The translations under genes were made by a program, and so were the position numbers. The notes beneath the pieces were generated by a model. The model had not been told where the DNA came from. It searched no databases and worked only from the letters and a program-made list of their open reading frames with translations. Of a stretch of DNA of 64,000 nt, positions 1 to 43,291 are shown piece after piece. How positions within the stretch are numbered: position 1 is the stretch's first letter; each line of letters opens with the position of its first letter. Source of the DNA: Takakia lepidozioides (Eukaryota > Plantae > Bryophyta); NCBI GenBank assembly GCA_030704615.1, contig CM060734.1, forward strand, positions 39,742,001 to 39,806,000, read 5' to 3'.

Positions 1-756
1 GAGCGAGTCAAGCACATAGGGATGATGCATGTGACCTGCAAGAACCCTATCATTTATACTAAGTGGTACAACAGCCCACATGTTGCTATGCTTGGTCGCT
101 TCATCAATTTCTCCCCACACTGAAACAGTTTGAAGGGCCTCACCCCACCGTCACTAGCAATGCAGGAAAGATTGCAAGTTGGTAATATCAATCAAGCCCT
201 TCTTGATACTGTCAACACGATCCAGCCCCTGCATAAACGTCAACCTGAGAACAAGGACTGGATGGCGGAGATTGACCGGAAGCTCGAGGCACATTCTATA
301 TCTATCCGTACAGACCTGCACACCGACATCAACGATATGGAGACCCAGCTTGTAGACTCTATCACACACCAACAACTAGAATACCATAAGTACATGTTAT
401 CGCTACACAAATCCATCACCGAATCCTTGGGCCAAAATCTGGCAAACTTTTACCATCACGCGGGCCTCATTCTCGCAAAGTTGCCCCAACTCCCTGGCTC
501 CACCTCTACTCATGACAACGGGACCCCACCACCTGTGGAGCCTGGCTCTCTCTCTCATCGCCACCGCCCTGTCATAACGAACTTCTTCCATGCGGCACCC
601 GAACTCAATGCAATGCTGCACCCACAGGCCAAATCACGGCTCCCCAACGTGGCTGTCAACCTTGAACGCAGTGGAGAATCGTCACCTGCTCCCAACACAC
701 ACGCCGTTACAGCAGCTTTCGCTCTCTCCGCTGCACACAACGATGCTCATGCGTAA
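1..756 (+). pseudogene. C-terminal part of a putative LINE ORF1
   Basis: Frame 1 is open from base 1 except for TGA at 121-123; the 208-aa ORF has a helical/coiled-coil-like stretch. Position upstream of the APE-RT ORF. No diagnostic motif. Confidence 0.45.
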
Positions 757-3354
757 TTCCCTGGGGCAAAGCTGCACCCAACAGGCTTACTCTAGCTTCC
801 GAGTCGCACTCTATTCTCTTCTATGTGTTGTTTCCTTTCTCGTACTTTTATGTTTCAATGTATCCTGCTCAAAATGTTACTCTACAGCTCTGAATGATTC
901 CACCACGATAGCACACTCAATACAAACTCTCACTTTCTCTCCTACTTACTCTCAATCGTCACTCTGCACTACTGGTGTCCCCTGTCACCACTCTCCCCTC
1001 TCTCTACAATTTGCAATCACATCCCACGGTCTCAATAAAGCCATCAATCTCAATCACTACTAACCTAGGCCAACCGCGCCCTGCCCTGCCACCCGCCTAG
1101 CCACATGTTCTAGTCACGCCACGTGCCATAACCAGATCGCTGCTGACTCTCCCCCACGCACGTTTATATCTCAGCACCCCCACGTCTTCCTCCTCAACCC
1201 CAGCTATATCTGCACCCGAGACCGTTTGTACCCCACCTCTCCCTGCGTGGACCTACCATACCCCGCCACCTGCTGGCCCCTCCCACCTGCAACCCACACT
1301 GACCCTACCACCCACGGATGCACCGCGCGTGCAACCTTCCCCACCCTTGAAATTAACAACCCCCCCCCCCACATGCTCCCAAATTTAAATCTGTATAAAA
1401 TTCCCCCCACCCGTTACCACCCTCGCCCCTTATATCACTGCACCCACCCTGCCCTGCCACCTCAAGTCTCCTGGCATTATTACCTGGCACCCCCCAGAGC
1501 CCAGTGTTCAAATCCCCATACGCCAACACCACGCTTCGTGTATTGTACGGTCCTCTACACTACCCACCATATTACCCGCTAGACTTCCTAACGGTCCTAC
1601 CGACTATACGGTCCTACTAATACGCCCCAATACAAATAAAATTATAGCCCCCCACACTCATATGCCTGCACCAAATAGAATCATACTTTCCCACACTCAC
1701 ACATCCGTGACACGCAACCTGTATTTCATTCATTCGTGGATGCGTTCATCCACGTCCTCACCCAACGCCGTGCATCCACGCAACGCGCCTACCCTCCTTA
1801 TACTCTCCACACTACCAACAGCCACCCCCACCGAACGTCATCTCAGTCACCCTCGGAAACATCCATTCACTACCTGCCCAATTATACCCATATACAAAAA
1901 TAATAAGCCCATACTCCTACCCATGAACACCATGCAAACTTGGATAAATGTACCTCATCCAACCCAGCTAAATACACATACCCCTCCCCGCTACGGCTCC
2001 CCGTATCCCACCCATTTAGACTCATGCTCCCCACACCTTTATAATATGCCACTACATAATCGATACATGCTCACCCCTAACCATACCCCCTGCACTCACA
2101 CTCCTCTTACCCATCACCGACACTCATCCAAATTCAGGGTCCTTCATCCGTGCCTCTGCCCACACTCATCCATCCGAGTATGTCGCCCACTTATCCAATC
2201 TCCCCCACTCTAATTAAATCTATACTCCCCACCCAACATACATCCACATTAAATTTTTACCAACCCCACCACATGCGCTCCTACACAACAAACCCCTTCC
2301 ATGACCACCAGACGACTCCACACACTAATCTCAAAGCAATAAAATCCCCCCCACACACAAAAACAACCAGCTCCACACGTCCCCACCACGACACCACCAC
2401 ATTAACCCCCCTAATACACCTTTTCAACAACTACCCCATGCATCCCTACCCCCCGTTCCCTTAAAATCCAACTTATAATACACTGCCCACATGGGAGATA
2501 TCACCAAAAACCTCTCGCATCTAAACATTCATCTCACCATCCACCGTCCCACTCTAAGCCCTATAAACTTGCCTGTGAAACGCTTATACTACTACGCTGC
2601 GGCGACATCCACCCCAACCCAGGCCCCTCTACCATCACTAGCATCATCAACAAGCTTTCCACAGACCATAAAGCCAGATATGCACTATATTTCCAAGCAG
2701 ACATTGTTTCCCTCGTACTTGCATATCAACACCTTAATGGCCACTTCTCTCCTTTTCTCCCCACCCCTTCCACCAATAACCGCAAACCCACCCACCCAAT
2801 TGCCATCTTTTGGGCTCCCTGCCTGCCAACACCCTTTTCTAGTCAGTGCCACCCATAAACTTAGCACATATCCCATACAACACCTCATATTCTCACTAAT
2901 CATCATCATCTCCCCAATACCCTCAATATGCAACGACTACTTTCGAACCCAACCAGACACACGCATTTGTTCACTACTACAACAATTGCAGGATTTACCC
3001 ACGCTACCTCACAGATATCTAGCACCCCCACACTACCTACACAACCTCCACGAATCTCTTGGCTTACTACAAGCCCAACCTGGAGTAATCCACAGGATTC
3101 TCGGCAAACATCTGGCACACCCACTTGCAACCATTCACGAACTAGATCTCGTCGCCAACAAATTCCCATTCCTCTCCAAAAAAATTCTCACTGCAACCCT
3201 TCAAGCCAGGACCGGCATCCCTGGATATCAACCCCCGCCCATGAAACCGACACCCACTACCCCACCCTACATGGCCAGCTCCACCAGTGACTCACCTCCA
3301 ACCCCCCCAAGATCACACAACCCCCCACACACCTCCTCTTCCCTGCAAGCACAC

Positions 3355-4135
3355 GCACTCAACATACTTCCTTGGAATGTCGGATCACTTGCCACCAGCA
3401 TTCAAAGCCTTATCCATCTCACAGAGTCTACACCCCCGCACATCATCCTACTACAAGAAACTAAACTCAACACACACAACCCCAATAGTTCATATATCAA
3501 CAAACTCCTTCCAGCCTATTATATGTTGTATGGTAGCTCATTCACAGCCGCACAGTGCCTAACTAGACGTTCCGCGCCATAGCATCCTACCCGGGGCGGG
3601 GTGGCTTTTGGTATTCTCCGCACACATCACTCCCCTAGCACCATGGTCAAAATGCCTGTCGCTCTCCCCCTCCGCTCACACCTTCAAATCATCAAACTCC
3701 ACCTCCCCGCGCTCCTCCCCATTATCCTTATACACTTGTACATGCCCACACACGCCGAAGATCTCCCCTTGATCCCTGATATCCTATTTACCATCTCCAA
3801 CACACTAACCCAATCCTCCACCGACTCCCAACACTACATCCTAGGAGGCGATTTCAACAGGGACATTGCCCTGATGGGTCACACATACAACGGCATACGC
3901 AAAACTCCATCCCCTGCAGACCAGGAATGGGCCAAGTTTACTCAATCACACCACCTCCGTTATATACCCGCCGACCATCATTATTCCAGACAAGGTGGAC
4001 ACAACTACTCATCCTTAAGCCTTTTTTACGGCTTCTACCTCAGGACACAAAATGACACCCCAACGTACCTTAACAGTCATGTGCACATTAATAGTTTATG
4101 CAACTCAGACCATTATCCCATTTCAATAACCCTCC
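3355..4135 (+). pseudogene. LINE AP-like endonuclease domain (APE)
   Basis: Motifs ILPWNVGSL, IILLQETKL, ILGGDFNRD, NSDHYPI; one in-frame stop at 3580-3582. Confidence 0.92.
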
Positions 4136-5089
4136 CACCATCCCTCATCCCCTTTAGACCCATTCCACCCATACATGTTCCACCGCCGCAATCTAGAATT
4201 TTATCCCCACTCCCCCACAATAACATAGTCACCTTTCTAAAGCACTTCCAACCAACATCCTGACACATTATGCTAAAACTCTCTGACATACTCTCCGAAG
4301 CAAACCTTGCGCAGTCCCCAGACAAAGCCTGGATCGAAGCCGAGATCATACTCACAACTTCAATGAAAGAAATGACCAAAAGTGTCATTGCCACCTGCTC
4401 TGCCCCTCCTGAAATCCCACAAACTCCACGCTCAAAACAAAATGGTGGCTACCTTACCCGTACTCAAAAACATACATGGACATCACATCTTAACACATAC
4501 CACATGATCAGACGCGCCCTTACTATTATACCTACCACTACCTCCATACACCCGAGGAATAACTAGACATCGGATCCACGTATCACTTGCCTAAATACCT
4601 TGACAACATGTCAAGCACTTATGCCTCCACCTGCCAATCCTCAAGATATTCCTAATTGGATAGCTGCTCTCTCCAAAGTTGGAAGAGATGCCAAAAAAGC
4701 CGCTTACAGTATTACCAAACAAAAAGCCACCGCCAATCACAAAAAAAAATTCTCCTCTTTTAACCAACTACTATGTGACCACCCCAAAAAAACTCACAAA
4801 GCCATCTTTAACCTTGCCCTCAACCCACCAATCGATTGTCTCAAACATAGGCATGGCCACCTGCTAACTAATCCAATGGACATCAACCAAGAAATATGGT
4901 TACAAGCATCCTCGACCTACACTCCCACAGTTACAAACTGTCTACACCCTAGTCTCCACACTGCCAACTGTATGTGTAAAGCTAAATACTATCCATGGCA
5001 TGATATCGATGGCTTCTCGATTGACAGCAGAGGATCCCCAGCGGACCGCATTCTAGACTTATTCACAATAGATCTCTACAAATCATGTC

Positions 5090-6080
5090 TCAAAAAACTA
5101 TCTAAATCTAAAGCCCCGGGCCCTGATCTTATCCCAAATGCCATACTTCAAGTATTGGACCCTCAACTTCATCACCTCTTCTTTAAATTTTTTCAACTAT
5201 GTTACAAACTGAAACGAATCCCACACTCTTGGAAGCATAGCCGCACCATTTTACTCTTTAAAAAAGGTGACCCTACAGATCTTAGTAACTACAGGCCTAT
5301 AGCACTGGCCAACACCATATACAAGCTATTCACCAGCACGCTCACCACAATGCTCTCAAGCTATGGCGAACAACACCAAATTCTCAGTGACCCCTAAGAA
5401 GGATTCTGCGCTACGCGTAGTACAACAAGACAAATACAATATGTTCTATCTGCCCTCGAAGATGCTAAAATTACAAAGCAAGACATATATCTCTTATATA
5501 TCGACTTTAAAAATGTCTTCGGCTCCTTAGATCATGCTAGGCTACTAGCTATCATGCTTGATCTTGGGTACCCCACTGATGCCGTCCAACTTATAGGAAA
5601 CATCTACACAAATAGTACCATTGAATACTTTGGTGCCTACTATGGCTCCACCCCGCCTATCTCCATCCTCCGAGGAACCATCCAAGGAGACACCTTAAGT
5701 CCTTACCTATTCATTATCTTCCTAGAACCCCTACTCCGCTGGCTCGCCCGTGGCAAACTTGGGTATCAATACAAAACCTCCTCAAGTGACATCTCAGCTG
5801 CAGCATATGCAGATGATCTCGCCATCCTAGCACACAAACCACACCACCTAAACCGACAAGTTCATAAACTATTTCGATTCAATCTATGGTCAGGCATGGA
5901 ACTCAGCTTACACAAATGCGCCATCACTGCGCCACACATCACAGTCGGCTCACTAAAGCAGCCATAGCCTCACATTGCAAACTCTACGTACACTACCAAA
6001 ACACACCTTTCCCCTTCCTGGGACCAGATGAGCCATACACCTACCTGGGTATCCAATTAATACCCTCCCTCACCTGGCAC
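5090..6080 (+). pseudogene. LINE reverse transcriptase domain
   Basis: KAPGPDLIP, YRPIALANTIYKLF, YIDFKNVFGS, GTIQGDTLSPYLF, AYADDL, YTYLGI; stop at 5395-5397 and a frameshift near 5940. Confidence 0.95.
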
Positions 6081-7167
6081 ATCCAAAAAAACTCTACATC
6101 ATCCAAACTAGCTACCAACAATCTGGCCCTGCTCAAATCCCCAATTGTCATCCGTCCGAAACTATCAATTATTCAATCCGTACTACAAACACAAATCCAA
6201 TACTCATTTCACGCCGCACCCTTCTCCCTACCAGACATCAAAAAACTTGATAAAAAGCATTATTCAACTTACAAAGCGCGTCTGTGGCTTACCAACTAGT
6301 ACCCCTAATGCCCTCGCGCAACTCCCAACTGACAGCTACGGGATCGGTTCGAGCCCCTTAATCATATCATATGCTCGCACATTAGGTACACAATTAAAAG
6401 AAGCACTCAACGATCCTGGACGACTCGGTCTCATCTATCAGGGCCTCCTCAAACACCTCGCATTAAAATACAATGGTCTTTACTCACTATCATCATTACA
6501 CCCACAAGCCTGCCTACACTCCCCTACTGCCCGCACACTACTCATTCTACGCCAAATGACAATCAGCATACAAACCGACCTGCTAGATTACCCTAACACC
6601 TCGTCACCCCTAGAACGCGCATGGCTCACAAGCCCTTTCTTATCACAATTCGACATCTCTCATCCAAAACAAAAAATCCCCATCCTCACCTATTTCAAAG
6701 AACGCAAATTACCACCATCACCCAACTTACCACCGCCTCCGGCCGTCGACTCTTAAAACCCAGCAAATTCACTCTTAAATTCTCCCGAGCTACTACCAAA
6801 ACCACTCGATACCTACACCATCTCCGAACCCTCTTCTGTCATCCCTCAGCAACCTGCACCCTCCACTGCAATATCCCATGTCTCTACTATCCCCATACGG
6901 TTCAAGACCTACTCCCCCAGTACCAATCCTCCCCTACTACCTCCATCTACCAACACTTAGAACGGCATATGCCGCCAATACCCCACAATCACAGAACCCG
7001 GCCCCCATCTACTAACACTACCTACAAACATACCGAACTTGACCACAACCCGAATGTGCCATTCACCCCTCACCTAATATGCAAGGCTCCCCCACCACTC
7101 CCAACCACTCACCACCCCCCCCCCCCCCCCCCCGTCTTCTCCACACAACGATAACAATAATAATGCA

Positions 7168-7310
7168 TACATCATTGAAGCCATACTAGGAGTCAAAATC
7201 CAAACATCAATCGATGCCTTTGGTGCCACCTGTATTGACACCTACTACCACTGTAAATGGGTTGGTTACTCCTCAGAAGACAACACATGGCAAATAGAAG
7301 ATGATCTATT
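7168..7310 (+). other. Chromodomain embedded in LINE ORF2
   Basis: Frame-1 translation (not in the ORF track): YIIEAILGVKIQ...YYHCKWVGYSSEDNTWQIEDDL, matching the chromodomain consensus YxVExIL...YxVKWxGYxxxxNTWExxxNL. Confidence 0.8.
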
Positions 7311-7777
7311 TGGCCTACATGACGATTGTGACCCCGAACACAATCTTGCCCTTCTCACCTCCTTCCATAAACATACTAACATGGACTACTTAACACACAT
7401 TCACCAACAACATACCACCCCCGCCCAACTTACAGATAGTCATTACATTCACCAGTCGATCTCTGCCCCTAACGTGCACATATGCATAACTGAGTGTAAC
7501 CCCATCAAAGATGTCAAGCACTTTTTTACGCGGGCCCCTGCCTTTCCAATATTTACGCTCAACACGGCCGCTTCATTGGAATCATTCCTAATAACAGATT
7601 AACATGGTTGTGGGAGAAGTATTATGCTGCCAACTCATACCCACAATCTCTACAACCCCCAAAACAAGACTTCGCGACCAAATTATATTGGCTCGTAGAC
7701 CGCTACCTCAAAGACACCCCCCCCCCCCCCCCCCCAAGGAGCCACGATCCCTCACCCGACTAGAAATGGCATGCGCA

Positions 7778-8065
7778 CACCATGCCGTACCCCAAGATAT
7801 CCTCGCCTTGCTTATCCATACATTCCAGCTTACTCACTCATATTACTCCAATCCACTGACATGTCCTATGGACTTGCACACATTTTCCAGCCCGCACCAC
7901 AGGGATTGTCTCTTTGGAGCTACCGGTAATGCTACCCAACATACCTGGGAGGGTAAGGGCTTTGCCCACCCCCCCTCTGGCCCTCTCGCTTATGAAGCTC
8001 TCCAATGGGCAAGATTCGCAACACACTCCTCTCCTTTTGCCTCCACAATCCTCATCCTCACACAA
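7778..8065 (+). other. PCIF1/CAPAM-like N6-adenine methyltransferase-fold segment in LINE ORF2 (catalytic motif degenerate)
   Basis: HAVPQDILALLIHTFQLTHSYYSNPLTC..FSSPHHRDCLFGATG..WEGKGFAHPPS parallels the PCIF1 core as recalled (..LP..VF..L...F.V..ECFASPLNC..Y.S....D..FGS.G....GSFEANPPF). Confidence 0.55.
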
Positions 8066-8489
8066 CAAAATACACCTAGCACCCCCCACCCTCTCCTACG
8101 ACTCCCGAAAGGGGTCAATCTACTCACCACAATTGACCCAAATCAGCTTAAGTACGCTCATACCCCCCTCTTCCCAAGTACCTCAAAAGGAAAGAACCTA
8201 CCGCTAACTCTGATTCTACATGTCCAAAACCCCCTTCACACAAACATACCAACACCTTTTTTCCACCAGCTAGACCAGTTGCTAACCATAACTCATAAAA
8301 TGAAGGCCACCATCCATCACCCAGCTACACCCCCACACACCCGCACAACCACCACATCTCCCCGGATCAGAACAAACAAAGCCTGGGGCATGGCACAACC
8401 GCGCCCCCCCAGGTAATACCAGCAACCCTCCTTCCCCCAATCCCCTTGATATACCAGCAAAACACCACCCTCAAGTATCCCCCGACAAA

Positions 8490-8890
8490 CTCACAATACA
8501 CTGCTAGATCCCTCACCAAACCCAATGCAGGCTATGGAATTTATCACGCCGGCAGCGGTCGGGGTGTTGCCCTCCGGCTCCCTGGCCCTGCCACCATCCT
8601 GAGGGCTGAGCTCATGGCCATCCACGACGCCCTCTCTCTACTTGACGCTTCCCCCCCCCCCCCCCCCCATACTACATTTTTCAATGATAGCCTCACCTCT
8701 CTATTTCTTATTCGAAATCATATCTCCCGCTCTTCTTCCCAATATCATCACCCCGACCGCAACCTCATTGCCGACATTGTCCAAAGGGCCATTTCCAAAA
8801 ACCATCCAGTCCATTTCCTCAAAGTCCGCTCGCACACTGGCATTCATGGTAATGAAGAAGCAGACCTACTCGCTCAACTCGGAGCCTCTC
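8490..8890 (+). pseudogene. LINE RNase H domain
   Basis: GYGIY, ILRAELMAI, FNDSLTSL, FLKVRSHTGIHGNEEADLLA; the first motif reads YTARS instead of YTDGS. Confidence 0.9.
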
Positions 8891-9237
8891 AACCCACAAT
8901 CGAACCCACAACCGACCCTATTCACATCGCCCATACCCACCCCTTCTGGTTCATACACCCCGTCTCGGACCCCCCTGCACCCGGACCAATCCAAAACCTT
9001 TTGACCACTCTAACTAGAGAAGCAAACAAGCAAGTTGCAGCCTCCCTCAGTCACACCAAAGTACACATCCAAAAATGGACTCAATCAAATGTATTACACC
9101 ATAAACTCTCTAATTATTTCTGGCTAACCAAAACTACCACTGATGCACAAATCCGACAAACACTCAAATTCAGATACGCCCAATACATGGGTCACCAGCA
9201 CAAACACATCTTCTGGCCGCATATGTTCCCTTCTCCA

Positions 9238-9906
9238 TACTGCCCATTATGCTCAAGCACTCACCAAGCTCGTGACACCTGGCCACATCTCCTCAACCAA
9301 TGTACACACCCGATCATACATGGCCTTCATATCACGCGACACAACTAGGCAGTCTGGCACCTCCATAAGCTCTTTCTAAACCGTGCTGAAACCAGATGGT
9401 TCTCGCTCATAAACGTTGGCACCTACCAAGGTCGGCCACCCGACCACATTGTGCCACCCTGGATGCTACCGTGTATATGTACCCGATCACCATGCTCATG
9501 CCCTGCTAGGCTTTGTCCGGACATACTCCTTGTACAAGGCCTACCCATTAACACCCTACCCCCCACCTCACCATCCTCACAATTCACCATTCATTTTATT
9601 GAATTCACATTTTGCCACGATCGTTACCCCAATGACTCGATTTTAGAAAAACGTAAAAAATATGCCTCGCTTATCCGTGCAATCAGACGGTATGGATGGA
9701 AAACTGGGCCGTTAACCGTCATCACCGTCGGTACTCGAGGAGGCATTCATAATGTCAGCATCACCGACATACATGATAACTTCAAAATTCCCACTCTTCC
9801 CATTCACAAATGCTTCAAAGCAATTCACCTTACGGCACTCCGTTCACTCACAGCTATTATCACCAACAAATGCCAACTGGAATCCGGCACCTCAATCGCA
9901 CCCTAG
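9238..9906 (+). pseudogene. CCHC zinc finger plus restriction-like endonuclease (RLE)
   Basis: CPLC..DTWPHLLNQC..RHN, then (R>C)PDILL..IEFTF..EKRKKY..GW..VITVGTRGGI, the typical C-terminus of RLE-type non-LTR elements; stop at 9346-9348. Confidence 0.88.
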
Positions 9907-9943
9907 GTCCCTCAGGGTACCCCTGGGTGCCCAGGGGTACCAC

Positions 9944-10937
9944 TGTCGCGCGGCTTTTACTCACCCATCCCTTTGCTATCCGAGGCGGAAACTCCAAGAT
10001 AGAAGAGTTGGAAATCTCTAAGCACTCAGCCCGCTCAGAACAATCAGTCATGACCTACAGCTAGTGTATCATGGGGGTGTTTCCTATTTGTTTTCCTTCC
10101 CGCATTCATGTTAGCTAGTTACCTTACTGTGGTAATTAAGTATCAGTTTGCTTCAGCAATCTATCGGATTTCATCAACTCATCCATTCATTCCACAGCTT
10201 CACTCAGATCTCTCTACACAGTGTGAGTATGAAGTGTGTATCAGATTAATATCTATCAAGTATCAGTCTGAAGCCATGGAGTCTCTAATCTGCTCTACAT
10301 TACAATTCTATAGCTTGCATTTATTAAGCATCAACAGATCGTCCTCCTCCTACTCCGTGCTCTCCCTCTTTCTGCTCAGAGATACGCTCTCTGCCTCATT
10401 TTCCCCCCGTGATATCCGAAGTCCCCCAATAAGTGCTCCCCCACTCCTTCCAGCAGTGATTCCCCAAGAAGTGATCTTTTTCCAGTCTCGCTCCTCGCTT
10501 TATCTTCCTACCCGTTGTTCTAACCGTTTCCCTCACTAACCGTCATCCGTGAACTAACATGTTCCATTCGCAGATGTTGTTCCCCACAGTCGTTCCCTGT
10601 CTGCTATCCGTTCCCTATGGTGTCGTGACAGCTGTGTTCAAGCTGTGTGACTGTGTGTTGGACTGTTGTGTGGAGTGTGTCGTGTCTGTGTGTGTGGACT
10701 GACGGGCTGTGTGTTGGGTGTGAAGAGTGTTGGCTGTGACGGGTGTGTCGGACGAGCTGTGCTGTGACGGGCTGTGTCGGACTGTGACGAGCTGTGTTGG
10801 CTGTGACGGGCTGTGTAACCTCCCCTAAAGTGCACTGCTGTCACCCCTAAGGCTCCTGTTGGTCTCAGTCTGTGCAAAAATTAAGGGTACCCCACAGATC
10901 CCGTAAAAGTGTCTAAGTCCCAGACAGTCCTCTAACA
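9944..10937 (-). mobile_element. Solo LTR of gypsy family C
   Basis: TG...CA ends; aligns end to end with 49419-50464; 5-bp TSD ACCAC at 9939-9943 and 10938-10942. Confidence 0.95.
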
Positions 10938-11076
10938 ACCACAAACTACATTCTACGGTCACCTAGTATCCCACAAGACACCTTTCTTTTATAGGGCCCA
11001 CCCTCGAAAGGGGGCAGTAGCCGCAAGGCGAAGTGGCTCTTAGTTACGCCGGCTTCAGCCGGAGTCTTCTCTCTCT

Positions 11077-11785
11077 TTGAAGCAAACGGATGACATTCGG
11101 GGATATGTTCAGGCTTTTAATAAGCTATTGCTCGAAGTTGCGGATATGGCGGAACCAGAAATGGTCTTCAACTTTGTGGTGTGACAGGCCCGTGGGCCAG
11201 GCGGAAGTTGGAAGAGAAGCCACCTAAGACTTTGAACGAGGCAATTGAAAGGGCTGAATATTTCTCGGATGTCCCTACGGGCGAAAGACAAGGTCGTACA
11301 AAGCTGAACCACAAGAAGACTCGGCGGGAAGGTGACTCCTTCCGACCGGAAAAGAAGTGGGATAGGCCACGCGGCGACAATAGCACATAAAAATCGAAGG
11401 GAGGGCCTTCACACGTCAAGGCAGCACTCGGTGCTCCGAAAAGAAAATCAGGTGCGGCGGCTTATGGCGGACAGAAGGAGACATTCGATGGAGTGTGCTT
11501 TAATTGCGGGGAGCCCGGACACATGGCCAAGAAGTGCGCGAAACCCCGATAATTGAACATGACTCGGGCGACCACGGAGCTATCCGAAGAGTCCATCAAC
11601 CGCTTGGTGGAGGCGGTAGTCGCCAAGACTTGCAAGGTAGGCAACTACGCTTGTGGTTGTACCAGGAGACTGGCCCCTTGCGTAAATGGAGTCGGTTAAT
11701 GTTCGTGAGTGGGATAATTTCCGGAACTATGGTGTCGTTGTTGATGGACACATGAGCGTCATGCAAGTTCGTCGAGGGCTCCATC
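11077..11785 (+). pseudogene. Fragment of gypsy family B gag/protease
   Basis: Homologous to the reverse complement of about 28700-29460 (GPWARRKLEEKPPKTLNEAIERAE; knuckle CFNCGEPGHMAKKC). Confidence 0.9.
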
Positions 11786-17849: not shown

Positions 17850-18260
17850 CAGGATGGCATTTTCTGTTTGAGTGGACCGGCAGGCAAGAGGTACCGGCCA
17901 CTGCGGGTCTTGTTGGACTCGGGAGCTCAGCCATTGATGCTGGGGGAGCTGCTATTGCAGGCTTGGGCCTCACGGAGGCGGATATAGAGCCTTGTCCTTT
18001 CAGATACAGACGTCTCTGGGAGGATCGGAGCAAGCTCGGGGCATGACACGGCGTGAGTTGGCTATCAGACTACGGCCGGATCACCCTACAGATGGCTCAG
18101 TGATGCGAGCCAAGGCCATTGTGACAGACGCAGTCTCGTACGATGTCCTGGTTGGTGGGGCAGTGTTGTACCCCATGGGCTTCACCCTGGATTTTTGGGA
18201 AGAGTCAGCTTCCTATAGGCCTGGATGGCAGTCAGGGGAGGGCCGGCGTGTGCAGCTCCC
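17850..18260 (+). pseudogene. Family A aspartic protease
   Basis: RVLLDSGAQPLM and YDVLVGGAVL motifs. Confidence 0.88.
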
Positions 18261-18609
18261 TGTGACGTTCATAGGAGGAGTTGCGGTTACCCAGCGGGGC
18301 AAGATGCCGACACTAGCAGCATTCACAGCAGTGAGTTGGCCTGGAGAGTTGCTTGAGGGCAACTCATTCAGAGGATGTGCCACCTCGGGAGAGCAGGATG
18401 ACATGTATGGTATGGCGGAGTTGCCTGTCATGGTTGCTCAGACTCCATTGTGGGGCACGAGCAAGGATTTGCAGCGGGATGCTGATCGACGGGTGCAACA
18501 AGCCTGGGTGGAGGCTTTTGTACCGTCAAGAGAGGAGGAGAGTGGGGATTGCACCAGGACCACCTATTGTCTCCATTGGACACCACACCTATTGTGTGGC
18601 AGTATCCGG

Positions 18610-19545
18610 ATGAAGGCATTTGTCTTCTGGACTTGTTTGGCGGGATCAGCACCAAATTGGCTGCTGTGTTACAGGCAGGTTTACGAGTTCGGCGTTACCT
18701 ATATGTGGAGAGGGATGAGACTGCACGACGCGTTTCACTTCGCCATGTTGCTCAGTTGGGCAGCGGTACCCTGAGTTGTTGTCGATGTCAATTCGTGGAT
18801 ATCAGCAGGCCTTGCCAACAGACATTTCGTTGCTGGGGGCGCAGGATTTGGAGCGGGTTGGCTCCATTGATCTGGTAGTGGCAGGTTGGCCTGCCAAGGG
18901 CATTCATCAGCCGGGCATGGCAATGGATTGCGAGACTCAAGGTCGGGTCTGTTTTGGGAGATGGTGCGGGTTTTGCGCCACTTGCAGCTTCATCAAGCTG
19001 TATCTCCAGCATACATCTTGGAGAATGTGCCACTGATGGCGATTCTCGGGCCAGGGTGATGGCCAGTGTGCATCAAGTCCGGTCATGGCTTGGGTCAGCA
19101 GTGTTGCTAGATGCAGCTACAGTGGGGTCACGGGCTCATCGTCCACGGCTATGGTGGACTAACTTGATGCCACCCGCACTGCTCAAGCGTGCATTTGATG
19201 GGGTGCAGCGGCCAGCACATCTCACAGTGGATACATTTTGGACACAGGGAGGCAGTCTCAGCGTGTGAGACACGATGACCGTTCGCCTTTGGCAGTGTCA
19301 ACAAGGTGGGTCAACCACGAGCACATTACCTACACTGCTCAGCTTCCCAGGATCGCATGCTTTCCGGGATAGTGGACCTGGCCTCCTGTGGGATGCTCAG
19401 TTGCAGCAGTTAGTGGAGCCTAATGCTGACGAGCGTGAGCGGGCAATGGGTTTTACCACTGGTACCACGGCGGTGCCGTCTCTTTCTGAGGCATCACGTC
19501 GTCAGTGTTGGGGCAAGCATGGATCTCAATTGCTTGACCTGGATT
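18610..19545 (+). pseudogene. C5 cytosine DNA methyltransferase domain (DNMT3-like) within the gypsy polyprotein
   Basis: Motif I LLDLFGGIS, II YVERD, III ADI/TDI, IV DLVVAGWP(C)QG, VI YILENV, VIII HRPRLWWTNL, IX ERERAMGF, X RRQ..G..MD. Confidence 0.92.
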
Positions 19546-22740: not shown

Positions 22741-22774
22741 GACCCAAACTTGCAGTGGTACCTGCAGGTTTGAG

Positions 22775-22912
22775 GTGCATGCTCTGTGGGTCTGCCAAAG
22801 GGGCAGCCACCATGCTGGTGTGTGATCGATGCTCAAGAGTTGGCATATGGGATGCTTGACACCACCTCTTGAGAGGTCTGACGGAGATTGGTTATGTCCA
22901 CACTGCTTGGGA
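22775..22912 (+). other. PHD finger at the integrase C-terminus (copy 1, frameshifted)
   Basis: Same sequence as the in-frame copy at 26569-26710. Confidence 0.85.
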
Positions 22913-23175
22913 TAGTGGCAGTGGACATGACTAGAGGCAGCTAACAAGACATGGGAGGCCAAGCTCATAGGAGTCAATACACGAGATCCCAGGCTCAAGT
23001 TCACAGGTTGCAAGACGGCGACTAACGATGGGGCAACTCTTGCACCCGGCCTCTTGATCTATCGAGTTTGAGTGTAGTAGGGACAGTGGTGGAGGACTTA
23101 GTGAGGCTATGGTAACTATCACATCTTGTGGCTACCTGAACTTAGAGGGACCTAAGCACCAGCTAGGGGGGCGAT

Positions 23176-30834: not shown

Positions 30835-31530
30835 CCTTGTTGACCACCAAAGGCGAACGGTCATCGTGTCTCACACGCTGAGACTGCCTCCCTGTGTCCA
30901 AAATGCTATCCACTGTGAGGTGTGCTGGCCGCTGCACCCCATCAAATGCATGCTTAAGCAGTGCGGGTGGCATCAAGTTAGTCCACCATAATCGTGGACG
31001 ATGAGCCCGTGACCCCACTGTAGCTGCATCCAGCAACACTGCTGACCGAAGCCACGACCGGACTTGATGCACACTGGCCATCACCTTGGCCCGAGAATTG
31101 CCCATCAGTGGCACATTCTCCAAGATGTATGCTGGAGATACAACTTGATGAAGCTGCAAGTGGAAACCCGCACCATCTCCCAAAACAGACCCGACCTCGA
31201 GTCTCGCAATCCATTGCCATGCCCGGTTGATGAATGCCCTTGGCAGGGCCAACCTGCCACTACTAGATCAATAGAGCCAACCCGCTCCAAATCCTGCGCC
31301 CCCAGCAACGAAATGTCTGCTGGCAAGGCCTGCTGATATCCACGAATTGCAGACACCGACAATAACTCAGGGTACCGCTGCACCAACTGAGCAACATGGC
31401 GAAGTGAAACGCGTCGTGCAGTCTCATCCCTCTCCACATACAGGTAACGCCGAACTCGTACACCTACCTGTAACACAGCAGCCAATCCGGTGCTGATCCC
31501 GCCTAACAAGTCCAGAAGACAAATGCCTTC
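30835..31530 (-). pseudogene. DNMT3-like cytosine methyltransferase domain, copy 3
   Basis: LLDLLGGISTG, YVERD, DLVVAGWPCQG (catalytic PC intact), YILENVP, HRPRLWWTNL. Confidence 0.92.
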
Positions 31531-34500
31531 ATCCGGATACTGCCACACAATAGCTGTGGTGTCCAATGTAGACAACTGAGGTGGTCCTGGTGCAATCCCC
31601 GCACTCTCCTCCTCTCCTGACGGTACAAAAGCCTCCACCCAGGCTTGTTGCACCCGTCTATCAGCATCCCGCTGCAAATCCTTGCTCGTGCCCCACAATG
31701 GAGACTGAGCAACCATGACAGGCAACTCCGCCATACCATATATGTCATCCTGTTTTCCCGGAGGTGGCACATCCTCTGAATGAGCGTTGCCCTCAAGCAA
31801 CTCTATAGGCCAACTCACTGCCGCTGTGAATGCTGCTAGTGTCGGCATCTTGCCTCGCTAGGCAACCGCAAATCCTCCTATGAACGTCACAGGGAGCTGC
31901 ACACGCCGACCCTCCCTTGATTGCCATGCAGGCCTATAGGAAGCTGACTCCTCCCAAAAATCCAGGGTGAAGCCCATGGGGTACAACGCTGCCCCACCAA
32001 CCAGGACATCGTATGAGACCGCGTCTGTCACAATGGCCTTGGCTCGCATCACTGAGCCATCTGTAGGATGATCCGGCCGTAGTCTGACAGTCAACTCACG
32101 CCGTGTCATGCCCCGAGCCTGCTCCGATCCTCCCAGAGACGTCTGTATCTGGAAATGACAAGGCTCTATATCCGCCTCCGTGAGGCCGAAGCCTGCAATA
32201 GCAGCTCTGTCCAGCATCAATGGCTGAGCTCCCGAGTCCAACAAGACCCGCAGTGGCCGGTACCTCTTGCCTGCCGGTCCACTCAAATAGAAAATGTCAT
32301 CCCGGTTGTCTAACATGACAACTCCAGGTGTCACCATGGCGCGCTCAATGGCTGGCCTAGCTGGCAGCTCCATCAACCTGGCAGCTGCAGCTTGCCACGG
32401 CACCGCCGTGGCAGTCTTGACCCTCAAATCCAAGGATCCCTCCGGCACTACACCTCCCACTATCTCCGCAGAAGATGAAGTAACCTCCCCACTCTCAAAG
32501 AGTGTAGCTGCCAGCCTGAACACCTCAGCTGATTTTACCCCCGGCGTCGCAATCATGGTAGCCGAGAACAATGGAGCCTGGCACACAGATGTGGCCGCTC
32601 CTAGCAGCACACTAGCTGCCGTAGCCTTGGCAACACTGGGTAGTGGTGCTACCCGTGTAGCTCTCCCTAATGGCATAGTAACCTCTGCCTCGGCAACAGT
32701 CGGGCGAGAACTAGGTGCCATGGATGGCGTCGACACTGTCTCCGCCAATGTGAATGACTGAGGAAGCCTAGCCTGACGGCTTGCCTCCCCACGCCGTGGA
32801 TCCAACTCCACCTCTGCACCTCGTGGCTCAGGAACTCGTGCTGCTCCTTGAGTCACGGCTGCAGCAGACTCCACCTGCACTAGTAGTAGTGTTGTTCCAC
32901 ACATGAATCCCATGCCTCCCATATCTCCTCCCTCAGGAGCATGAGGTGGACCATCCGGCCTTAGAGCCGGTACCACCTGAGCTGTAGCCATGGCAGCGAG
33001 CCTCTGCTCTAGCTGCTGAAGCCGGTTGGCCATGCCTTGGTCAACACCCTGACCTCCGCGTCCTTGGCCATGTTGAGCTTGCCCTTGGCTTGCACCTCGT
33101 GGCTGGCCACCTCGTCCTCTCTGGGCTGCTCCACCTCGCCCCCGGCCACCATTGTTCCCTTGGAACTGGCCTGGGCGCAACTCAGGATGCAAACCATAAC
33201 ACTGGGCGTCTCCATGCCCGTGCTTGCCACAATGCCTACACTGCAACTGTGCAGGCTGTGCATGTGCCGGCCCTTTGCCTCCCTCTGGGCAATCCTTCTT
33301 GACATGGGGTCCTCCACATGTCTAGCACACCACATCCGCCCGTTGTTGGCCAGCAAATGAAGGGAGAGACCCCTGCATCTGAGTCCTCTCTGCCCTTCCC
33401 TAAGCTTCACCTGAGCCCCCTTGTTGCCTTGAGCACGTTGAGGTAGTGGTTGGCTAGGAGCACCACTACCCCGTGGTGTCTCCTTAGCAAATCCCACCAT
33501 GACCACTCGTTCCTCCACCATGTTGAGCTCTATCCGCTCTGCCAGCAAAAACACATTTGCTAAGGTGGGTTGGGCCGCTTGTAGGAGAGTTGCATCCCGC
33601 ACCCTTCTCCTCAGCTCCTTGTCCAATATCCCATACAGAATTGGACTGCCTGAGCTTCCGTAACCCCTTGGGTTACATTTATCAAGCGCCTCATGCGAGT
33701 GAAAGCCTCCCTCAAGCTCTCGGTCGGCTTCCGTTGGAACTCTTGCAAGCTCCGCAACTTCTCTGTCCTCACCCCTTGGTAGTTCCCTCTCAACTCTTCG
33801 AAGAACTCCACAACAAGGTTGAAGGCAGGCACGGGTACTAGTGCTGGTGCGGTAGTGGCTTGGGTGGACGTCGTAGCTACTGTGCCACAAGTCCCACTAG
33901 TCCACTGCTACTTGCTGAAGCTGCCGGTGCAGCGGCAGGTGTAGCCACTGCCCTCGTGGCTCTAGTGCCCTAGTGATGGAGACATAGTCGGGTGACCAAT
34001 ACATCCTCCACTCCTCGATCTCAACCTCATGCCCCTGCCTAAACTCATGGTAATCATCCATAGGCGGCCCCTCAAGGTGCTGAAACAGCCCTTCCATGCC
34101 ATGAAAGGCGTAAATAGTTGTGGATTGCGCATTTGCTGCAAATCACACCAACTATCAAACTCTTGGATAAAATCATCCAACTCGATGGTGCCCACCGCCC
34201 CAGAGTACCTTCGTGGCCCCTTGGTAGCTCCATACATCTCTCCTCCATTGTGTCCCACAACAATGGCAAGAAATAACTTGCACCGCCGGTATGAGTCCTC
34301 CTGATTCACAATCCGAATCAGAACCTTCCGTAGAAGACACAGGAGGTGAAGGTGGCCTAAACCGCACACCTCGTCTCGTGTACCCATTAGTATCGCTAGT
34401 GCTCGAACCGGCACTGTCCCCAGCAACTAGTGGCACCTCGTGTTGACACTCAACCGGTCATGAACATGTCCCTAACCCCCTCTCCACAAGGTAACCGGGT

Positions 34501-37118
34501 AGAGAACCTGTTGCGGCTTAGGGTTTGGAATACTAAGTTCCTAACATAGCCTACACATGTACCTGCATCCACCGCAAGCACTCCTATGGTTGGCTGGTTA
34601 TCACCTCCAACCTCACCATAGGAGAAACAATGATGGTCTGGCTGGTCATCACCCCAGCCTCACCATCGACAACATGCTCTAGGACTGGCCGGTGATCAAA
34701 TCCGGACCAATCACCTATAAAAACAAGCGCCCACACAAAACTAGCATGGCGCACAGTCAAGCATGCAGGTATGGAGGGGATCCAAACACAAGAAATCAGA
34801 ACGACAACTCCCCCACACCAAAAACAACTCCACGGTGTTGCTCCTGCAAGGACACCCCAGCCCAAACCCGGACTGACTCTTGCCTCCACCTATGGAAAGG
34901 TCTTGGCCTAATGAGAGGGTGGAAACTACGAGAAAGAGAAGCTAAAGCAATGCCTAACCCCAGCATGCCCTCATCCCAACACTCCCTCTCCTCTCTTCCC
35001 TCACTTGCATGACCATGGGAATATCATGAAGATACTTCTCAAACCGCCCTCCACAAGCTTCAAAATTCGGCCTTCAAGACCACATACCAGTCCTTAGGCA
35101 GTCCACCAGTGCCTCCACGAGTCAGCACAGGCCGTCCACAGGTCAACACGGGCCACCACAGACCAGCACAAGCCCACACAGCTCACAGGCCACAGCCTGT
35201 CACAGCCCTACACAGGTCACAGGTCACAGCCCCAAAGGCCACAGGCATAGCCTGTCACAGCCCTACAAAGGTCACAGGGTCACAACCGCAAAGGCCACAG
35301 CCTATCACAGCCCCTCACAGCCCCATAGGCCACAGGGCACAGCCTGTCACAGCCCGACCACAGGTCACAGGGGTCACAGCCCAAAGGCCACAGCCCCACA
35401 ACCCGTCACAGCCCCACAGGCCACTGGCACCCGTCACAGCCCGTCACAGCCCCACAGCCCACAGGCACAGCCACAGCCTGTCACAGCTCGCCGCCTGTCA
35501 CATCCCGTCACAGCCCTACAGGCCATAGGGCACAGCCTGTCACAGCCCCTCATAGCCCGTCACAGCCCCACAGGCCACAGGCCACAGCCTGTCAAGCCCC
35601 TCACAGTCCGTCACGGCCCCACAGGCCACTGGGCATAGCCTGTCACAGCTCGCCACAACCTGTCACAGCCCCTCATAGCCCGTCACAGCTTGCCACAGCC
35701 TGTCACACAGCTCGTCAAGCCCCACAGGCCACAGGGCACAGCCTGTCACAGCCCGCCACAGTCCATCACAACCCATCACAGCCTATCACAGCTCGCCACA
35801 GCCTGTCACAGCCCGTCACAGCCCCACAGGCCACAGGGCACAGCCTGTCACAGCCCCACACAGCCCGTCATAGCCCCACAGGCCACTGGGCACAGCCTGT
35901 CACACAGCCCCTCACAGCCCCACAGGGCACAGGGCACAGACTGTCACAGCCCCTCACAGCCCGTCACAGCTCCAAAAGGCCACCGGCACAGCCCCCTCAC
36001 AACCCACCACAGACCCCAAGGCCACCGGCACAGCCCGTCACAGGCCCTCACAGCCCGTCACAACCCCGAAGGCCACCGGCACAGCCCGACGCAGCCCGTC
36101 ACAGCCCCAAAGGCTGTCGCGCGGCGTTTACTCACCCATCCCTTTGTTATCCGAGGCGGAAACTCCAAGATAGAAGAGTTGGAAATCTCTAAGTACTCAG
36201 CCCGCTCAGAACAATCAGTCATGACCTACAGCTAGTGTATCATGGGGGTGTTTCCTATTTGTTTTCTTTTCCGCATTCATGTTAGCTAGCTACCTTACTA
36301 TTGATAATTAAGTATCAGTTTGCTTCATCAATCTATCGGATTCCATCAACTCATCCATTCATTCCACAGCTTCACTCAGATCTCTCTACACAGTATGAGT
36401 ATGAAGTATGTATCAGATTAATATCTATCAAGTATCAGGCTGAAGCCATGGTGACTCTAATCTACTCTACATTACAATTCTATAGCTTGCAATCATCAAG
36501 TAACAACAGATCATCATTTCTCCTACTCCGTACTCTTCATCTTTCTGCTCAGAGATCCCTCTCTGTCTCATTTCCCTTCCTCATGTCCGAAGACCCCTCC
36601 CGAAGTCATGTCCAGAAGTGATCTCCACAATCGATGTCAAGAACTGATTGCAAGCCGTAATCTCAAGAAGTGATCCTCCTCCCGTCCTCGCTCCTCGCTT
36701 TATTTTCCTACCCGTTGTTCTAACCATTTTCCTCACTAACCGTCATCTGTGAACTAATCATGTTCCATTCGCAGATGTTGTTCCCCATAGTCGTTCCCTG
36801 TCCTGCTATCCGTTCCCTACGGTCGTGACAGCTGTTTCAAGCTGTGACTGGCTGTGTGGCTGTGACGGGCTGTGACTGGCTGTGCGACGTGTTGCTGTGA
36901 CTGGCTGTGTGGCTGTGTCGGCGTGTCGGCTGGCTGTGTGCGGTTGTGTTGGCTGTGGCTGTGATGGGCTGTGTCGGCTGTGTGACTGTGACGGGCTGTG
37001 TTGGCTGTGACGGGCTGTGTCGGACTGTGACGGACTGTGTAACCCCCCTCTACAGTGCGCTGCTGTCACCCCTAAGGCTCCTGTTGGTCTCAGTCTGTGC
37101 AAAAATTAAGGGTACTCC

Positions 37119-40100
37119 TCAGATCCCGTAAAAGTGATATCGAGGTAATCTTTCAGGCATAGGAGACCCCCGTTGCTTCTTCTCTGCCATCTGAATTGCA
37201 TAGTCTTCTCCCATGTCAAAAGAATCCGCCGAAGAAACAGTTGTATCAGAATCCTCATTGCCTCTCAGGTGTTTTAATTGTCGAACTTTTTGTGGAATCC
37301 TCTGGGGCATACAATGTTGTCCCTACCATGTCTGGAAGTTTATATTTTAAAACTTGCTATAAACGCTGAACGGCAAAATTGGTGAAGACACTGAGCTCCT
37401 TGTCTGTCCAGGTGAGTGGGGTACCAATGACTTGTGAATTGTTCAAGTATTTCCATGCCACATGTCCCTTATAGAAAATATCATCAATGCCGAATTTCTG
37501 TGTTGACAAATTGTTCCAGACCGCCTGAAACCATGAACGAATTTGAGAATCCTTTTGCATCATAACTTTTGCCTCATAAGGTACATATGAGGTGGCACTG
37601 AAGGTAAGACCCAATGATCCCCACTGGAATAACTCAGAAAGCGCGATTGCATCTTTTGCTGCTCAATGTGATAACGTACCAGAAAACAGCAGCGTAGTAT
37701 AACCCACATCCATGACAATACTCGCTACCTCCTTGGTCTTGGTATAAATGAATCCATGTACAACTTGGAAGGCAATTAATTCCCTCAACATTGTACTTGC
37801 CTCATGCCAGTATTGTGCAAAGTGATGATCCTCAATTGGTCGATTGTTCGGAACAACTTTAGTCCTAGTTGCCACTGGCAGCCAAATGCGCATGATTTGG
37901 TAGTAATATGACTGCGGAGGACTAAATTCTTTCCAAGCCAAATCCAACATGATGGGAATTTGGTTGAAGGGCATAATCATAGCCCTACTATACTCCCTTG
38001 CAGCTGGAGTTTTAGGTGGGTTAAAAGCAGCATTGCCCCATACCTCAGGCTGTGGTGGCTGTGGGTGGGTTGTAGTAACAACAGGGTCAGCTACTGGCAC
38101 AGTGACTTGTTGTGGTGTTGGTGGCACTGGCTTTGTATCATTGGCATCCCCTGCACCTCCCGTGAAGAAGACTGAAAAGCCAAAGTTTTGGCTTTTAAAT
38201 AAGAAGCCATTAGTTGTTCCTGAGGTATATAGACTCTTTTGTCGATATTTGAAGTGAGGTCCTCCACTTGAGTCTGCAGTCCGTCTACATCCTCCTGTAA
38301 CTCCGCTATTCTACTATAGACATTGTCTATAGTAGTTGTGGCATTGTTTTGCACTTGCAGTCTGAGCTCATTCATTCGCTTTGGGTGAGCTTTCGTGGTG
38401 CTTTGCCCTCTGGCCTTGTGCTAACCAGACCTGCATAGGTTATCCACCAAGTTGCTTGTGGTCCTCTCTGAGAGTGTGCTCCTCTCTTAGTTTGTACACA
38501 TCTAACTGCTGTTGTAAAGCCTCCATGCGCTTCGCATGAGGTTCAACCAAATTCGCATAGGCAGCAAGTAGATTATTGGCTTCCTTCCAAGCCTTGTTAG
38601 TGACCGAGATTTCATTTCTATTGGCCATGATCGTTTGTTGCAACTCCAGGATGTACTTCTCTTGATCAGCTTCAATCTGCTTGTATTGCTTGAAAGTATC
38701 CTCATTGCGATAGATTGTATTCTTCATATCGACAATGAGTTTGATGTGCTCAACATTCTCTGTCTGCCTTCGTACATTTTTCCGCTTGACTGTTTATTTC
38801 TTTTGTAGATTGGTCAAGCATAGTTGTTAATGTAGCATTTTGTATGGCCATTCTGTCATGCACTGTCTGCAACTCCGTATGTAGTGCATTCACTTCTTGC
38901 AACTTGCTTTCATGCTTCACCTGCATTTGGTATAGCTGTTGCTTATGTGCTTCGTGCAATTGGTCTTGCGCGGGCCTGCCTCAATCAATTGTTCCTTGGC
39001 CAATTGCAAAGCCGCTTCTGTATTCTCCAAGTCTTGCTGCATCTTGAGAGTGACCTCTTCATCGACCTTGTTTGCACACTCAGTGGCTAGTCGAGCCTCA
39101 AACTCCTTCCTGAGTTCTTCTCTCAAGGCTGTCAATTGGGTAGTTGGAACATGGATTTGACATAAGTCCCCAACAAATTAAGTGTCCTGCCTATGGAACT
39201 CATAAGCATTGCCTGTTGAGGGTCATCATGGTGAGCTTGCTGCTGTTCTCCTTCTCCCTGATCCTCGACAGTGTGATGTCTCACGAACCACTCAGGCCAT
39301 TGTCCCACCAGATTTTCTTCCTGAACCACTTCATCTGTCACTAATGCTGCAGTGTCTTGGCATTCTACCTGTGGTACCTCCGGCACAGGTGTGTGTATTA
39401 TATGCACTCAGGATTTCCCTGGGCAACTGTTGCACCTCTGGAATCTCTGCCTCCTTGACCAGACCAGAATATTCATAGAGAAGGTCCCCCTTCTCAATTC
39501 TGCCACTATCTGTTCTGTAGTGGGAATATCTAACCCTTCTTTTTCCAAATCAATTATTTCTGGTTGAGCTGCATGGACAACTTGTGGTAACCTTGTGACA
39601 AGCCGATCATCTGGCTGTGATGGCTGTGATACTGAAGTAACTTCCTCTTCCCTCTCTGAAGGTCCTGCTTCTAGTAATAGCAGTTCTCTGTGCTGCTGTG
39701 CCCCTTCCTGCATAAAAACTTGGGAAACATTATCATGCGGATTCCGTGAAGCCAGTGGATCCGCCACTACAGTCTTTCCCCGCCTCTGTCTCTTATTCTC
39801 GGTTTGCCCCTGCCAGTCCACCCTCACTGTGTGAAGAGCCTTGCTCTTCCATTGCAGTGGTTTCTGGCTCAAACACTCCCATCTCCTTTCTTTCTCGCGC
39901 ATCAAGGATGCCAGAATCAAGAATTATTTGAGCAATGATTGGGCCAGACATTATGATAGGAGACTTTGCGGCAGTACCCTGTAATCTTTTCATCTCCTCT
40001 ACCAGTGCGTTGTACATTATGTCCGCCCATTCTACCTCTTCTCCTCTCAGGCTTTGAGTATTTCCTCTGTGAAGCTGCTCAAATACTGTTGGTTCTGTTT

Positions 40101-40730
40101 CATGGCAACAGAACGTTCAATACCTGGCCTACCTCCTTTAGCCCTGGGTACACGGCTTTGGTACAAGCTAACCCTGAGTTTTAAAGAAACTCCCTTCTTG
40201 GAATAAGTCCCCTATTTGCAGTCTTGCCCTGTGCCCCTCCACATGCACTTGACCTGCTGGCAATCGAAACAATTGCTGTAGGTATAGGGGAGTAATTTCT
40301 AATTCCACTCCCTCACCGTTGTTGCTCCTGTCCTTAGGCTCAAGTTCTGCAAGAATTGTAACATGTACTGTCTATGGTGCAATGTCCAATCTTGGTTTTG
40401 CAATCCTTGCAATCTCAGCTCCTTCAGTAACTGTACTGCCTGTGGCAATCGTTTGTTTCTGCAGATTGTGGTGCTCTTCACCCTGATTTCCTCCATTCCT
40501 CTCACTCTCTTCATTCTAGACCCACAGAAATGTTTTTGGCTGTAACAATAAAGAATGCCTGTAGTGCACAAAGCATAAACGTATGGTTGCCACAAAAAGC
40601 TATGGGTAATTTCTTGTAAGCCTGTGGGGCTTGCAAGCATCGATCAAGAGAAAAGATCCGCTCTGTTCTTTCGTCCCTATGCCACTGCGTAAGTAGTATT
40701 GCAAGCGTATAGTCTGTTAGTTCCTCCATA
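37119..40730 (-). pseudogene. Long extra ORF(s) downstream of family C pol; unknown function, central coiled coil
   Basis: Chain of abutting minus-strand ORFs joined by frameshifts; Q/E/K heptad-like region at 38100-39135. Confidence 0.65.
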
Positions 40731-41214
40731 GCTTCAAAGCTATCGCATTGATGGTTTGTCCCGTCGAGACGCCCGTTACTTAGAACGACGCCGACTCTTG
40801 CGCTTAAATTCCCTCCAATTTCTTGATCTTTTTTCTGGCTTTCGATTGCTGTAACCGCTGTGACTGGATTTTAGATTTAATTTTCTTTAGTGGACTTTCC
40901 CTGCTGATTGTCCACTAGGATCACACATGTGACAAGAATTTCGCTTTTCTGTACTTGTCGTTTGTTCCGTTCCCCTTTTTCCGTATTCATTAATGGGCCC
41001 GCCATTCATCCGAATTGACGCGCTAAGTAGGTACTTTGACGGCCATTCTTGTCCTCTTTCTTGATGACACCTGTTCTTTGCACTTCCTCTCTCAGCTGTG
41101 TGTCGCGCCCTGACTTCCACACCTATTTTTAAACTGGTTTCCGTCCTTTCTTCCGTCGGCCATTTTCCTGAAGTTATGTGCGTCCACCTGTCACTGATTC
41201 TATGGATTGTGTAA

Positions 41215-41440
41215 CCCTAGTAGGCTGTGTTGAGCTGTGACAGGCTGTGTCATACTGTGGTACGCTGTGATAGGCTGTGATGCACTGTGGTAAGTTGTGA
41301 TGGCTGTGACACGCTGTGGTAGTTGTGATAGGCTGTGTTGCGCCCGTGATGGCTGTGATAGGCTGTGTTTCGCCTTGATATAGGCGTGATGATGATAGGC
41401 TGTGTCGGCTGTGATAGGCTGTGATGGGCTGTGAACGTCG
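41215..41440 (+). repeat. GGCTGTGA-type tandem repeats just downstream of the family C integrase
   Basis: Repeated taggctgtg/tggctgtga units. Confidence 0.75.
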
Positions 41441-41609
41441 TGATGGGCTTGATAGGCTTGTCACGCTTGTTGCCCGCCCTGTCATATATGCTCGGCCTAG
41501 CGACAAGTGCTCCATACTCCGTTGGTAACACTGGCGCAGCCCGTGACTGCTCTTGCGTTTCAACATGCAAATCATGCTGCAATGGTTTGTCATGGACCAC
41601 TGTACCCCT

Positions 41610-43290: not shown

Positions 43291-43291
43291 A

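Follow-up and report, generated by a model that had tools for sequence, protein, structure and literature searches.

A chromodomain with an intact aromatic cage is encoded inside a LINE of Takakia lepidozioides, between the reverse transcriptase (RT) and the RNase H. The window analyzed here, a stretch of 64,000 nucleotides, harbours one decayed copy of this element (Table 1). The chromodomain is a feature of the LINE family and not a stray insert. By analogy with MAGGY, it may steer insertion of active copies to silent chromatin, a reading that is given a probability of about 0.55.

Table 1 Features of the LINE copy and of the LTR within it, in window coordinates
Feature	Position	Strand	Basis and remarks
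2A/StopGo-like motif (predicted), upstream of APE	2598-2627	+	motif, D-I-H-P-N-P-G-P variant
APE endonuclease	3373-4122	+	W-N-V, Q-E-T, G-D-F-N and S-D-H motifs; broken by a stop at 3580
Reverse transcriptase and thumb	4600-6612	+	RVT_1 73.7 bits; Y-A-D-D at 5806; stops and frame changes
Stop-to-stop frame	7078-7602	+	poly-Pro linker, chromodomain, C-N-P-x-x-D motif (7495)
Chromodomain, classical (group I-like)	7168-7314	+	PF00385, PDB matches, cage residues, variants in other copies
PCIF1/CAPAM-like methyltransferase-fold domain, frameshifted	7548-8182	+	profile from relatives; PF12237 E 0.0012, below cut-off
RNase H	8497-8886	+	PF00075 42.9 bits; alignment with relatives
CCHC zinc knuckle	9241-9303	+	motif, alignment with relatives
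Restriction-like endonuclease (RLE)	9517-9906	+	PD 9517, E 9601, K-K-Y 9655; stop codon 9904-9906
Solo LTR (TG...CA) in the LINE 3' end	9944-10937	.	5-bp duplication 9939-9943, 10938-10942

The chromodomain and its host element

In the initial annotation a chromodomain was read in frame 1 over 7168-7311, in a frame absent from the ORF track, and this reading is exact. The first Met of the stop-to-stop frame lies downstream of the domain, so that an ATG-based track would miss it. The Pfam chromodomain profile (PF00385) scores 31.4 bits (E 1.7e-7) on 7141-7380, above its curated cut-off of 25.1, and 29.0 bits (E 1e-6) on the whole frame. A sequence search of the PDB returned 48 sequences at E ≤10 (top E 5.2e-5), the top row being followed by Chromo domain-containing protein 1, chromobox proteins, HP1, CDY and MPP8. 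The single-sequence AlphaFold2 model of the domain has a pLDDT of 32, too low to read a fold. The three cage aromatics, Y7168, W7258 and Y7267, are intact, as had been claimed. The acidic residue past the cage, D7279, matches the chromobox 1 alignment and presumably has a functional role. In HP1 numbering the cage aromatics are Y24, W45 and Y48 (excerpts of PMC3350952). The third strand reads TWQ (7285-7293) instead of TWE, and this holds family-wide, the variant listed at 7293 being silent and none replacing the residue. TWE is a conserved motif, with green algae and a few classical domains as exceptions (excerpts of PMC3350952). The loop joining strands 1 and 2 is unusually long.

The domain lies inside a LINE coding region, as initially proposed, with RT upstream (RVT_1, 5404-5928) and RNase H downstream (Pfam 8524-8886). 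Window positions 1 to ~10000 form a single C-rich block. A search with the RT region yielded 165 long proteins, the best 120 of which (P0001-P0120, the listed relatives) show RT identities of 38-51 % and lengths of 1363-4130 residues. Many of these contain APE, RT, PCIF1_WW and RNase H, and some Josephin, OTU, Ulp1 or PHD; named matches among them are Haematococcus, Pleodorina and Parachlorella proteins. In the window copy the APE was recognized in pieces, both under the Pfam cut-off (PF03372, E 0.012; PF14529, E 1.8e-5), and tblastn with relatives agrees. The RLE region has no Pfam match and was assigned from relatives and from what we take to be the RLE motif pattern, applied to 9517-9663; it is matched by 39 of the 120 listed relatives and by the top matches of a large HMMER search. 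In the 2A-like motif His replaces Glu. Such motifs occur in 17 of the 120 listed relatives, one with the same His variant, and P0091 has two.

RT and RNase H are located between the two nucleases and the CCHC knuckle precedes the RLE. The combination of APE and RLE has been described as unique to the Dualen clade (excerpts of PMC9977147 and PMC4640811), and judged by its domain order the host element is a multi-copy LINE of Dualen/RandI layout. No integrase match was found in the flanking frames, and RT, RNase H and nucleases are of LINE type, not those of a chromovirus. Neither Josephin (profile from 44 proteins) nor OTU (from 7) was found in window positions 1-10500, where the 5' part is decayed; many listed relatives likewise have no Josephin. 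A long target duplication has been reported for Dualen (excerpts of PMC9977147), and in algae its 3' microsatellite tail is (ATT)n or (CTATTT)n (PMC3747384). No tail of this algal type is present in 10943-11090, where another repeat begins at 11076.

The window copy is dead, having stops, frame changes and Ala in place of the first catalytic Asp of RNase H. Because stops and frame changes separate RT from chromodomain in this copy, their fusion is taken from the relatives, by which active copies would make one long polyprotein. Upstream of the LINE, 124-756 (+) holds a 210-residue open frame without a match among the listed relatives.

The C-N-P-x-x-D motif, in the same frame as the chromodomain, precedes the PCIF1-like region in relatives. 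In the window this region is matched by a profile from relatives at 7548-7730 (E 5e-9) and 7769-8182 (E 2e-21); both signature motifs are altered and the domain is probably inactive. A PCIF1-like domain is found in 101 of the 120 listed relatives, always between RT and RNase H. Among 100 aligned relatives E-R-F-A-S-P-L-N is kept in 26, and N-P-E-Y, at the catalytic position, also in 26, the others being degenerate. Loose ends in three runs show other copies departing from the window at 7520, and the window copy seems locally altered around 7520-7545.

The initial annotation had also considered that a targeting role fits the insertion of the LINE into a nest of transposable elements. This argument fails locally. 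The solo LTR, inserted 37 bases past the LINE stop codon, lies inside the LINE with a target duplication, so that the LINE is older and the LTR came later: the LTR entered the LINE and not the reverse. Since the LTR is the later arrival and no target site of the LINE itself can be seen, its location is no evidence for targeting, and in a genome rich in transposable elements lying among them proves nothing. The solo LTR is 83-84 % identical to the LTRs of a 14.3-kb element at 36115-50464, which has LTRs that are 94 % identical to each other and its own 5-bp target duplication.

Elsewhere in the window an inverted Ty3/gypsy-like pair, at ~17938-18774 (+) and 31108-31857 (-), is 93 % identical over 4.9 kb and carries a C5 cytosine methyltransferase fragment (PF00145, E 2.5e-8). 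A degenerate PHD finger at 22772-23173 (+) follows a Ty3/gypsy-like integrase (PF00628, E 0.0036, below cut-off). The decayed transposase at 55326-57756 (-) (DUF659, E 4.6e-23) is presumably hAT-like, and a motif at ~59486-59545 (-) resembles what we take to be plant PLS-class pentatricopeptide repeats, pointing to a host among land plants.

Copies of the family and the corresponding slot in relatives

Copies of the element were sampled from Logan contigs with a filter of 80 % likeness, the single decayed copy in the window serving as reference. Positions 7150-7345 are covered by 103, 109 and 97 contigs in runs X1-X3, which stem from one sample, and by 7 contigs in X5, a run from another study. 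One further run, presumed to be RNA, gave 0 contigs, which is no evidence either way. No indels occur among the variants listed over this segment. One contig links 6766-6919 to 7162-7308 across a gap of 232 letters (242 in the window), and another links 7172-7436 to 7733-7975 across 295 letters (296 in the window). In X1 one single contig skips the domain wholly (6635 to 7564) and one partly (7205 to 7356). The initial annotation had staked its identification on a profile or structure match and on presence in the family; both were found, the latter in about 100 contigs in each of runs X1-X3, with near-identical spacing in the two linking contigs.

Forty variants are listed, spanning 7194-7311, and 13 more exist. 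In the chromodomain frame 30 of the 40 are at third positions and 29 are synonymous, 10 replace a residue and one is a stop if taken alone. Only 6 and 7 of the same 40 are synonymous in the other two frames. With a chance expectation of 20-28 % the binomial p is ~1e-8 or less, for sites that are not independent. The W7258 codon has no variant among those listed and Y7267 has one, which is silent; by eye, in the loose ends of more diverged contigs the first cage position reads Tyr and the third either Tyr or Phe. This pattern indicates that the chromodomain frame was under purifying selection during activity of the family, on counts that stop short of a formal dN/dS.

A Pfam-level chromodomain occupies the slot between RT and PCIF1-like domain in none of the 120 listed relatives. 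PF00385 has precomputed matches in two of them, both Ty3 integrase chimeras, and the window chromodomain matches none of the 120 at E 0.01. Directly upstream of the PCIF1-like anchor, a divergent chromo-like module is found in 86 of the 120 (83 of the 101 anchored), with the pattern Y..E.I..I, Y.V.W.PT, helix, GY, V.W..WEP, helix. At least 34 of the 120 have a PHD finger inside the module according to a regular expression, a count that is a lower bound because several PHD-like rows carried other labels. Reader modules, chromo-like or PHD, are the rule in this slot among the relatives, and the window domain occupies this clade-wide reader slot. The initial annotation was thus right about a chromodomain in a LINE, and missed the Dualen type, the PCIF1-like domain and the slot shared by the clade.

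The fold of the module was called from Foldseek and sequence profiles. A profile of 25 aligned PHD-free modules, chosen from 38 candidates, matched seven PDB sequences at E ≤10, six of them chromodomain proteins, in two pieces and with a best E of 0.035. Pfam Chromo reaches E ≤5 in 6 of the 25 members (best 5.7e-7). An AlphaFold2 model of the module (pLDDT 94) shows two strand-strand-strand-helix repeats. Foldseek with this model gave nothing at E 0.001 and put an unrelated protein first by E-value; among the rows shown, a probability of ≥0.9 was reached only by the MPP8 and CDY1 chromodomains (0.90-0.96; TM by target 0.65-0.70; E-values 0.34-0.9). The module therefore probably adopts a chromo fold, tandem or split, without the third cage aromatic. 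Most relatives lack this aromatic and yet have intact elements, so that transposition does not require a cage.

A search with the module profile gave no match to the window chromodomain. Aligned by hhalign, the two give a probability of 0.8 %, and the collapsed module profile scores the window domain at 0.7 bits, shuffles at up to 3.9 and a Ty3 chromodomain at 21.4. The window domain ends 70 residues short of the N-P motif at the start of the PCIF1-like region; for 67 relatives the median distance is 81. The slot holds two short units in P0002 and P0008 and a near-canonical single unit in P0012, so that it is plastic and descent possible. By eye, residues ~2110-2290 of P0012 comprise the near-canonical chromodomain and then a Tudor-type-looking domain; Pfam called neither type in this slot.

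Protein homologue searches with the chromodomain frame and with the RNase H-RLE region gave nothing at E 0.001, and two metagenome scans gave no locus of a close relative spanning RT to RNase H. HMMER against 1.84 billion proteins returned RNase H-RLE fragments; 0 of 149 new proteins match the chromodomain. RT trees were built from the window and its relatives, without named Dualen reference elements or outgroups. The IQ-TREE tree (56 of 121 rows) places the window lineage deep, without a resolved sister. A position next to six proteins, with a FastTree support of 0.98, was not kept by IQ-TREE on those 56 rows.

Two origins of the domain appear evenly balanced. In this lineage a canonical chromodomain newly acquired from a chromovirus or a host reader may have replaced an ancestral divergent module, or the lineage may have kept an ancestral canonical domain from which those of the relatives decayed. 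The missing sequence link between window domain and module argues for capture, as does the single unit in the window where most relatives have two repeats. The identical position ahead of the PCIF1-like domain, the units of P0012, P0002 and P0008 and the deep placement in the RT tree argue against it.

Possible roles of the chromodomain

In the targeting reading the chromodomain of active copies would bind a methylated H3 lysine (H3K9me or H3K27me), and this binding would tether the RNA-protein particle to silent, repeat-rich chromatin. APE and RLE would nick the DNA there for target-primed reverse transcription. Binding of methyl-lysine as such is likely, judged from the cage. Group I chromodomains, that of MAGGY among them, bind H3K9me2/3 and are linked to insertion into heterochromatin (excerpts of PMC3350952 and PMC5006619). 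TWQ in place of TWE, the failure of the module profile on the window domain, the two contigs that skip it and the intact relatives without a third cage aromatic count against the targeting reading, as do the stops and frame changes between RT and chromodomain in the window copy.

The main alternative, which is somewhat less probable, is that selection keeps the domain in the LINE protein for a role other than steering insertion to heterochromatin. Its ligand could be a different one (an active mark, RNA or a methylated non-histone protein), or the domain could serve chromatin retention or silencing evasion, perhaps acting jointly with the PCIF1-like domain. The same conservation data agree with this as with targeting, and so do the TWQ variant, the long loop and the PHD fingers and cage-less chromo-like units with which relatives fill the slot. 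However, the domain retains the three cage aromatics and the following acidic residue, and the proteins of solved structure nearest to it in sequence are, as we take it, H3K9me/H3K27me-type readers. Chromodomains can bind DNA, RNA and proteins as well (excerpts of PMC3350952), in line with a role other than steering.

Targeting by the window LINE may also be part of a wider scheme, which as a whole is doubtful. The Dualen clade would possess a swappable histone-reader slot coupled to a PCIF1-like adenine-methyltransferase fold, holding a tandem chromo-like fold, a PHD finger or, in the window lineage, a canonical methyl-lysine chromodomain. Each lineage would pick the chromatin state for its insertion and possibly place marks on its own RNA or on new DNA. 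If true, Dualen would be the LINE counterpart of the chromoviruses.

That the domain is a passenger, either a chromovirus integrase tail or host exon fallen into one copy or a segment carried without function, is very improbable and largely refuted already: Ty3/gypsy elements abound in the window, the collapsed module profile is fitted better by a Ty3 chromodomain than by the window domain and the listed relatives have no Pfam-level chromodomain in the slot, but the window holds neither an integrase match in the flanking frames nor a second copy of the domain, the contigs of each run show steady spacing, no listed indels and mostly synonymous variants, and the frame is shared with the C-N-P motif at a distance close to that in the relatives.

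One Dualen family is active in Chlamydomonas (excerpts of PMC9977147), so that a living element is available in which to test both the PCIF1-like domain and the reader slot. The chromodomain is short and easily expressed for peptide assays.

Comparison with known retroelements

Chromodomains occur in fungal LINEs of the Tad1 clade, for which the literature search gave no confirmation. The founding paper on Dualen/RandI is reportedly that of Kojima and Fujiwara from 2005. LINE chromodomains are absent from the available sections of PMC4112212, PMC4427930, PMC4408406 and PMC2864245. Dualen/RandI elements are described in PMC4640811, PMC9977147, PMC8557442 and PMC13405545, and the excerpts of these four accounts name neither a chromodomain nor a PCIF1-like domain. 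In the literature searched, Dualen and chromodomain were paired only in the title of a Ty3 reference, and no report of either domain in Dualen was found; the founding paper, Repbase-type descriptions and Craig's 2021 thesis with its supplements lie outside this search, and the thesis may already describe both domains.

The window LINE resembles Dualen/RandI in that a single element has both nucleases, APE and RLE, besides RT and RNase H, and its RT similarity extends to listed proteins of that layout, including Josephin-bearing algal ones. The motif upstream of its APE recalls the 2A-like peptide of Haematococcus Dualen/RandI (excerpts of PMC13405545). It differs in the cage-intact chromodomain between RT and RNase H, and in that no Josephin or OTU protease was found in the window copy. 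Dualen bridges RLE-type and APE-type LINEs.

Chromodomains and PHD fingers are widespread in retroelements (excerpts of PMC6673714), and PHD is common in Chlamydomonas elements (excerpts of PMC8557442). The PHD of CR1 LINEs and Chlamys and the MBD of CopiaMBD are likewise captured readers with a proposed role in target choice (excerpts of PMC6673714 and PMC8557442), but differ from the window LINE in domain and position. DIRS1 elements also have a PCIF1-like domain in a retroelement polyprotein, with catalytic motifs that are often altered; these are tyrosine-recombinase elements, whereas here the domain stands beside a reader module in a LINE clade (excerpts of PMC4738411 for DIRS1).

Group I chromoviruses (MAGGY, Tcn1, Chlamyvir and Skipper-1) share with the window LINE a classical three-aromatic chromodomain in a retroelement polyprotein. 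However, the chromoviruses are LTR elements and have the domain at the C-terminus of their integrase (excerpts of PMC3350952 and PMC5006619), while it is internal in the LINE, which lacks an integrase and uses nicking and priming for insertion. For these LTR elements, which use an integrase, targeting by means of the chromodomain is established. A selected cage-intact chromodomain in a LINE would put the same solution onto target-primed reverse transcription.
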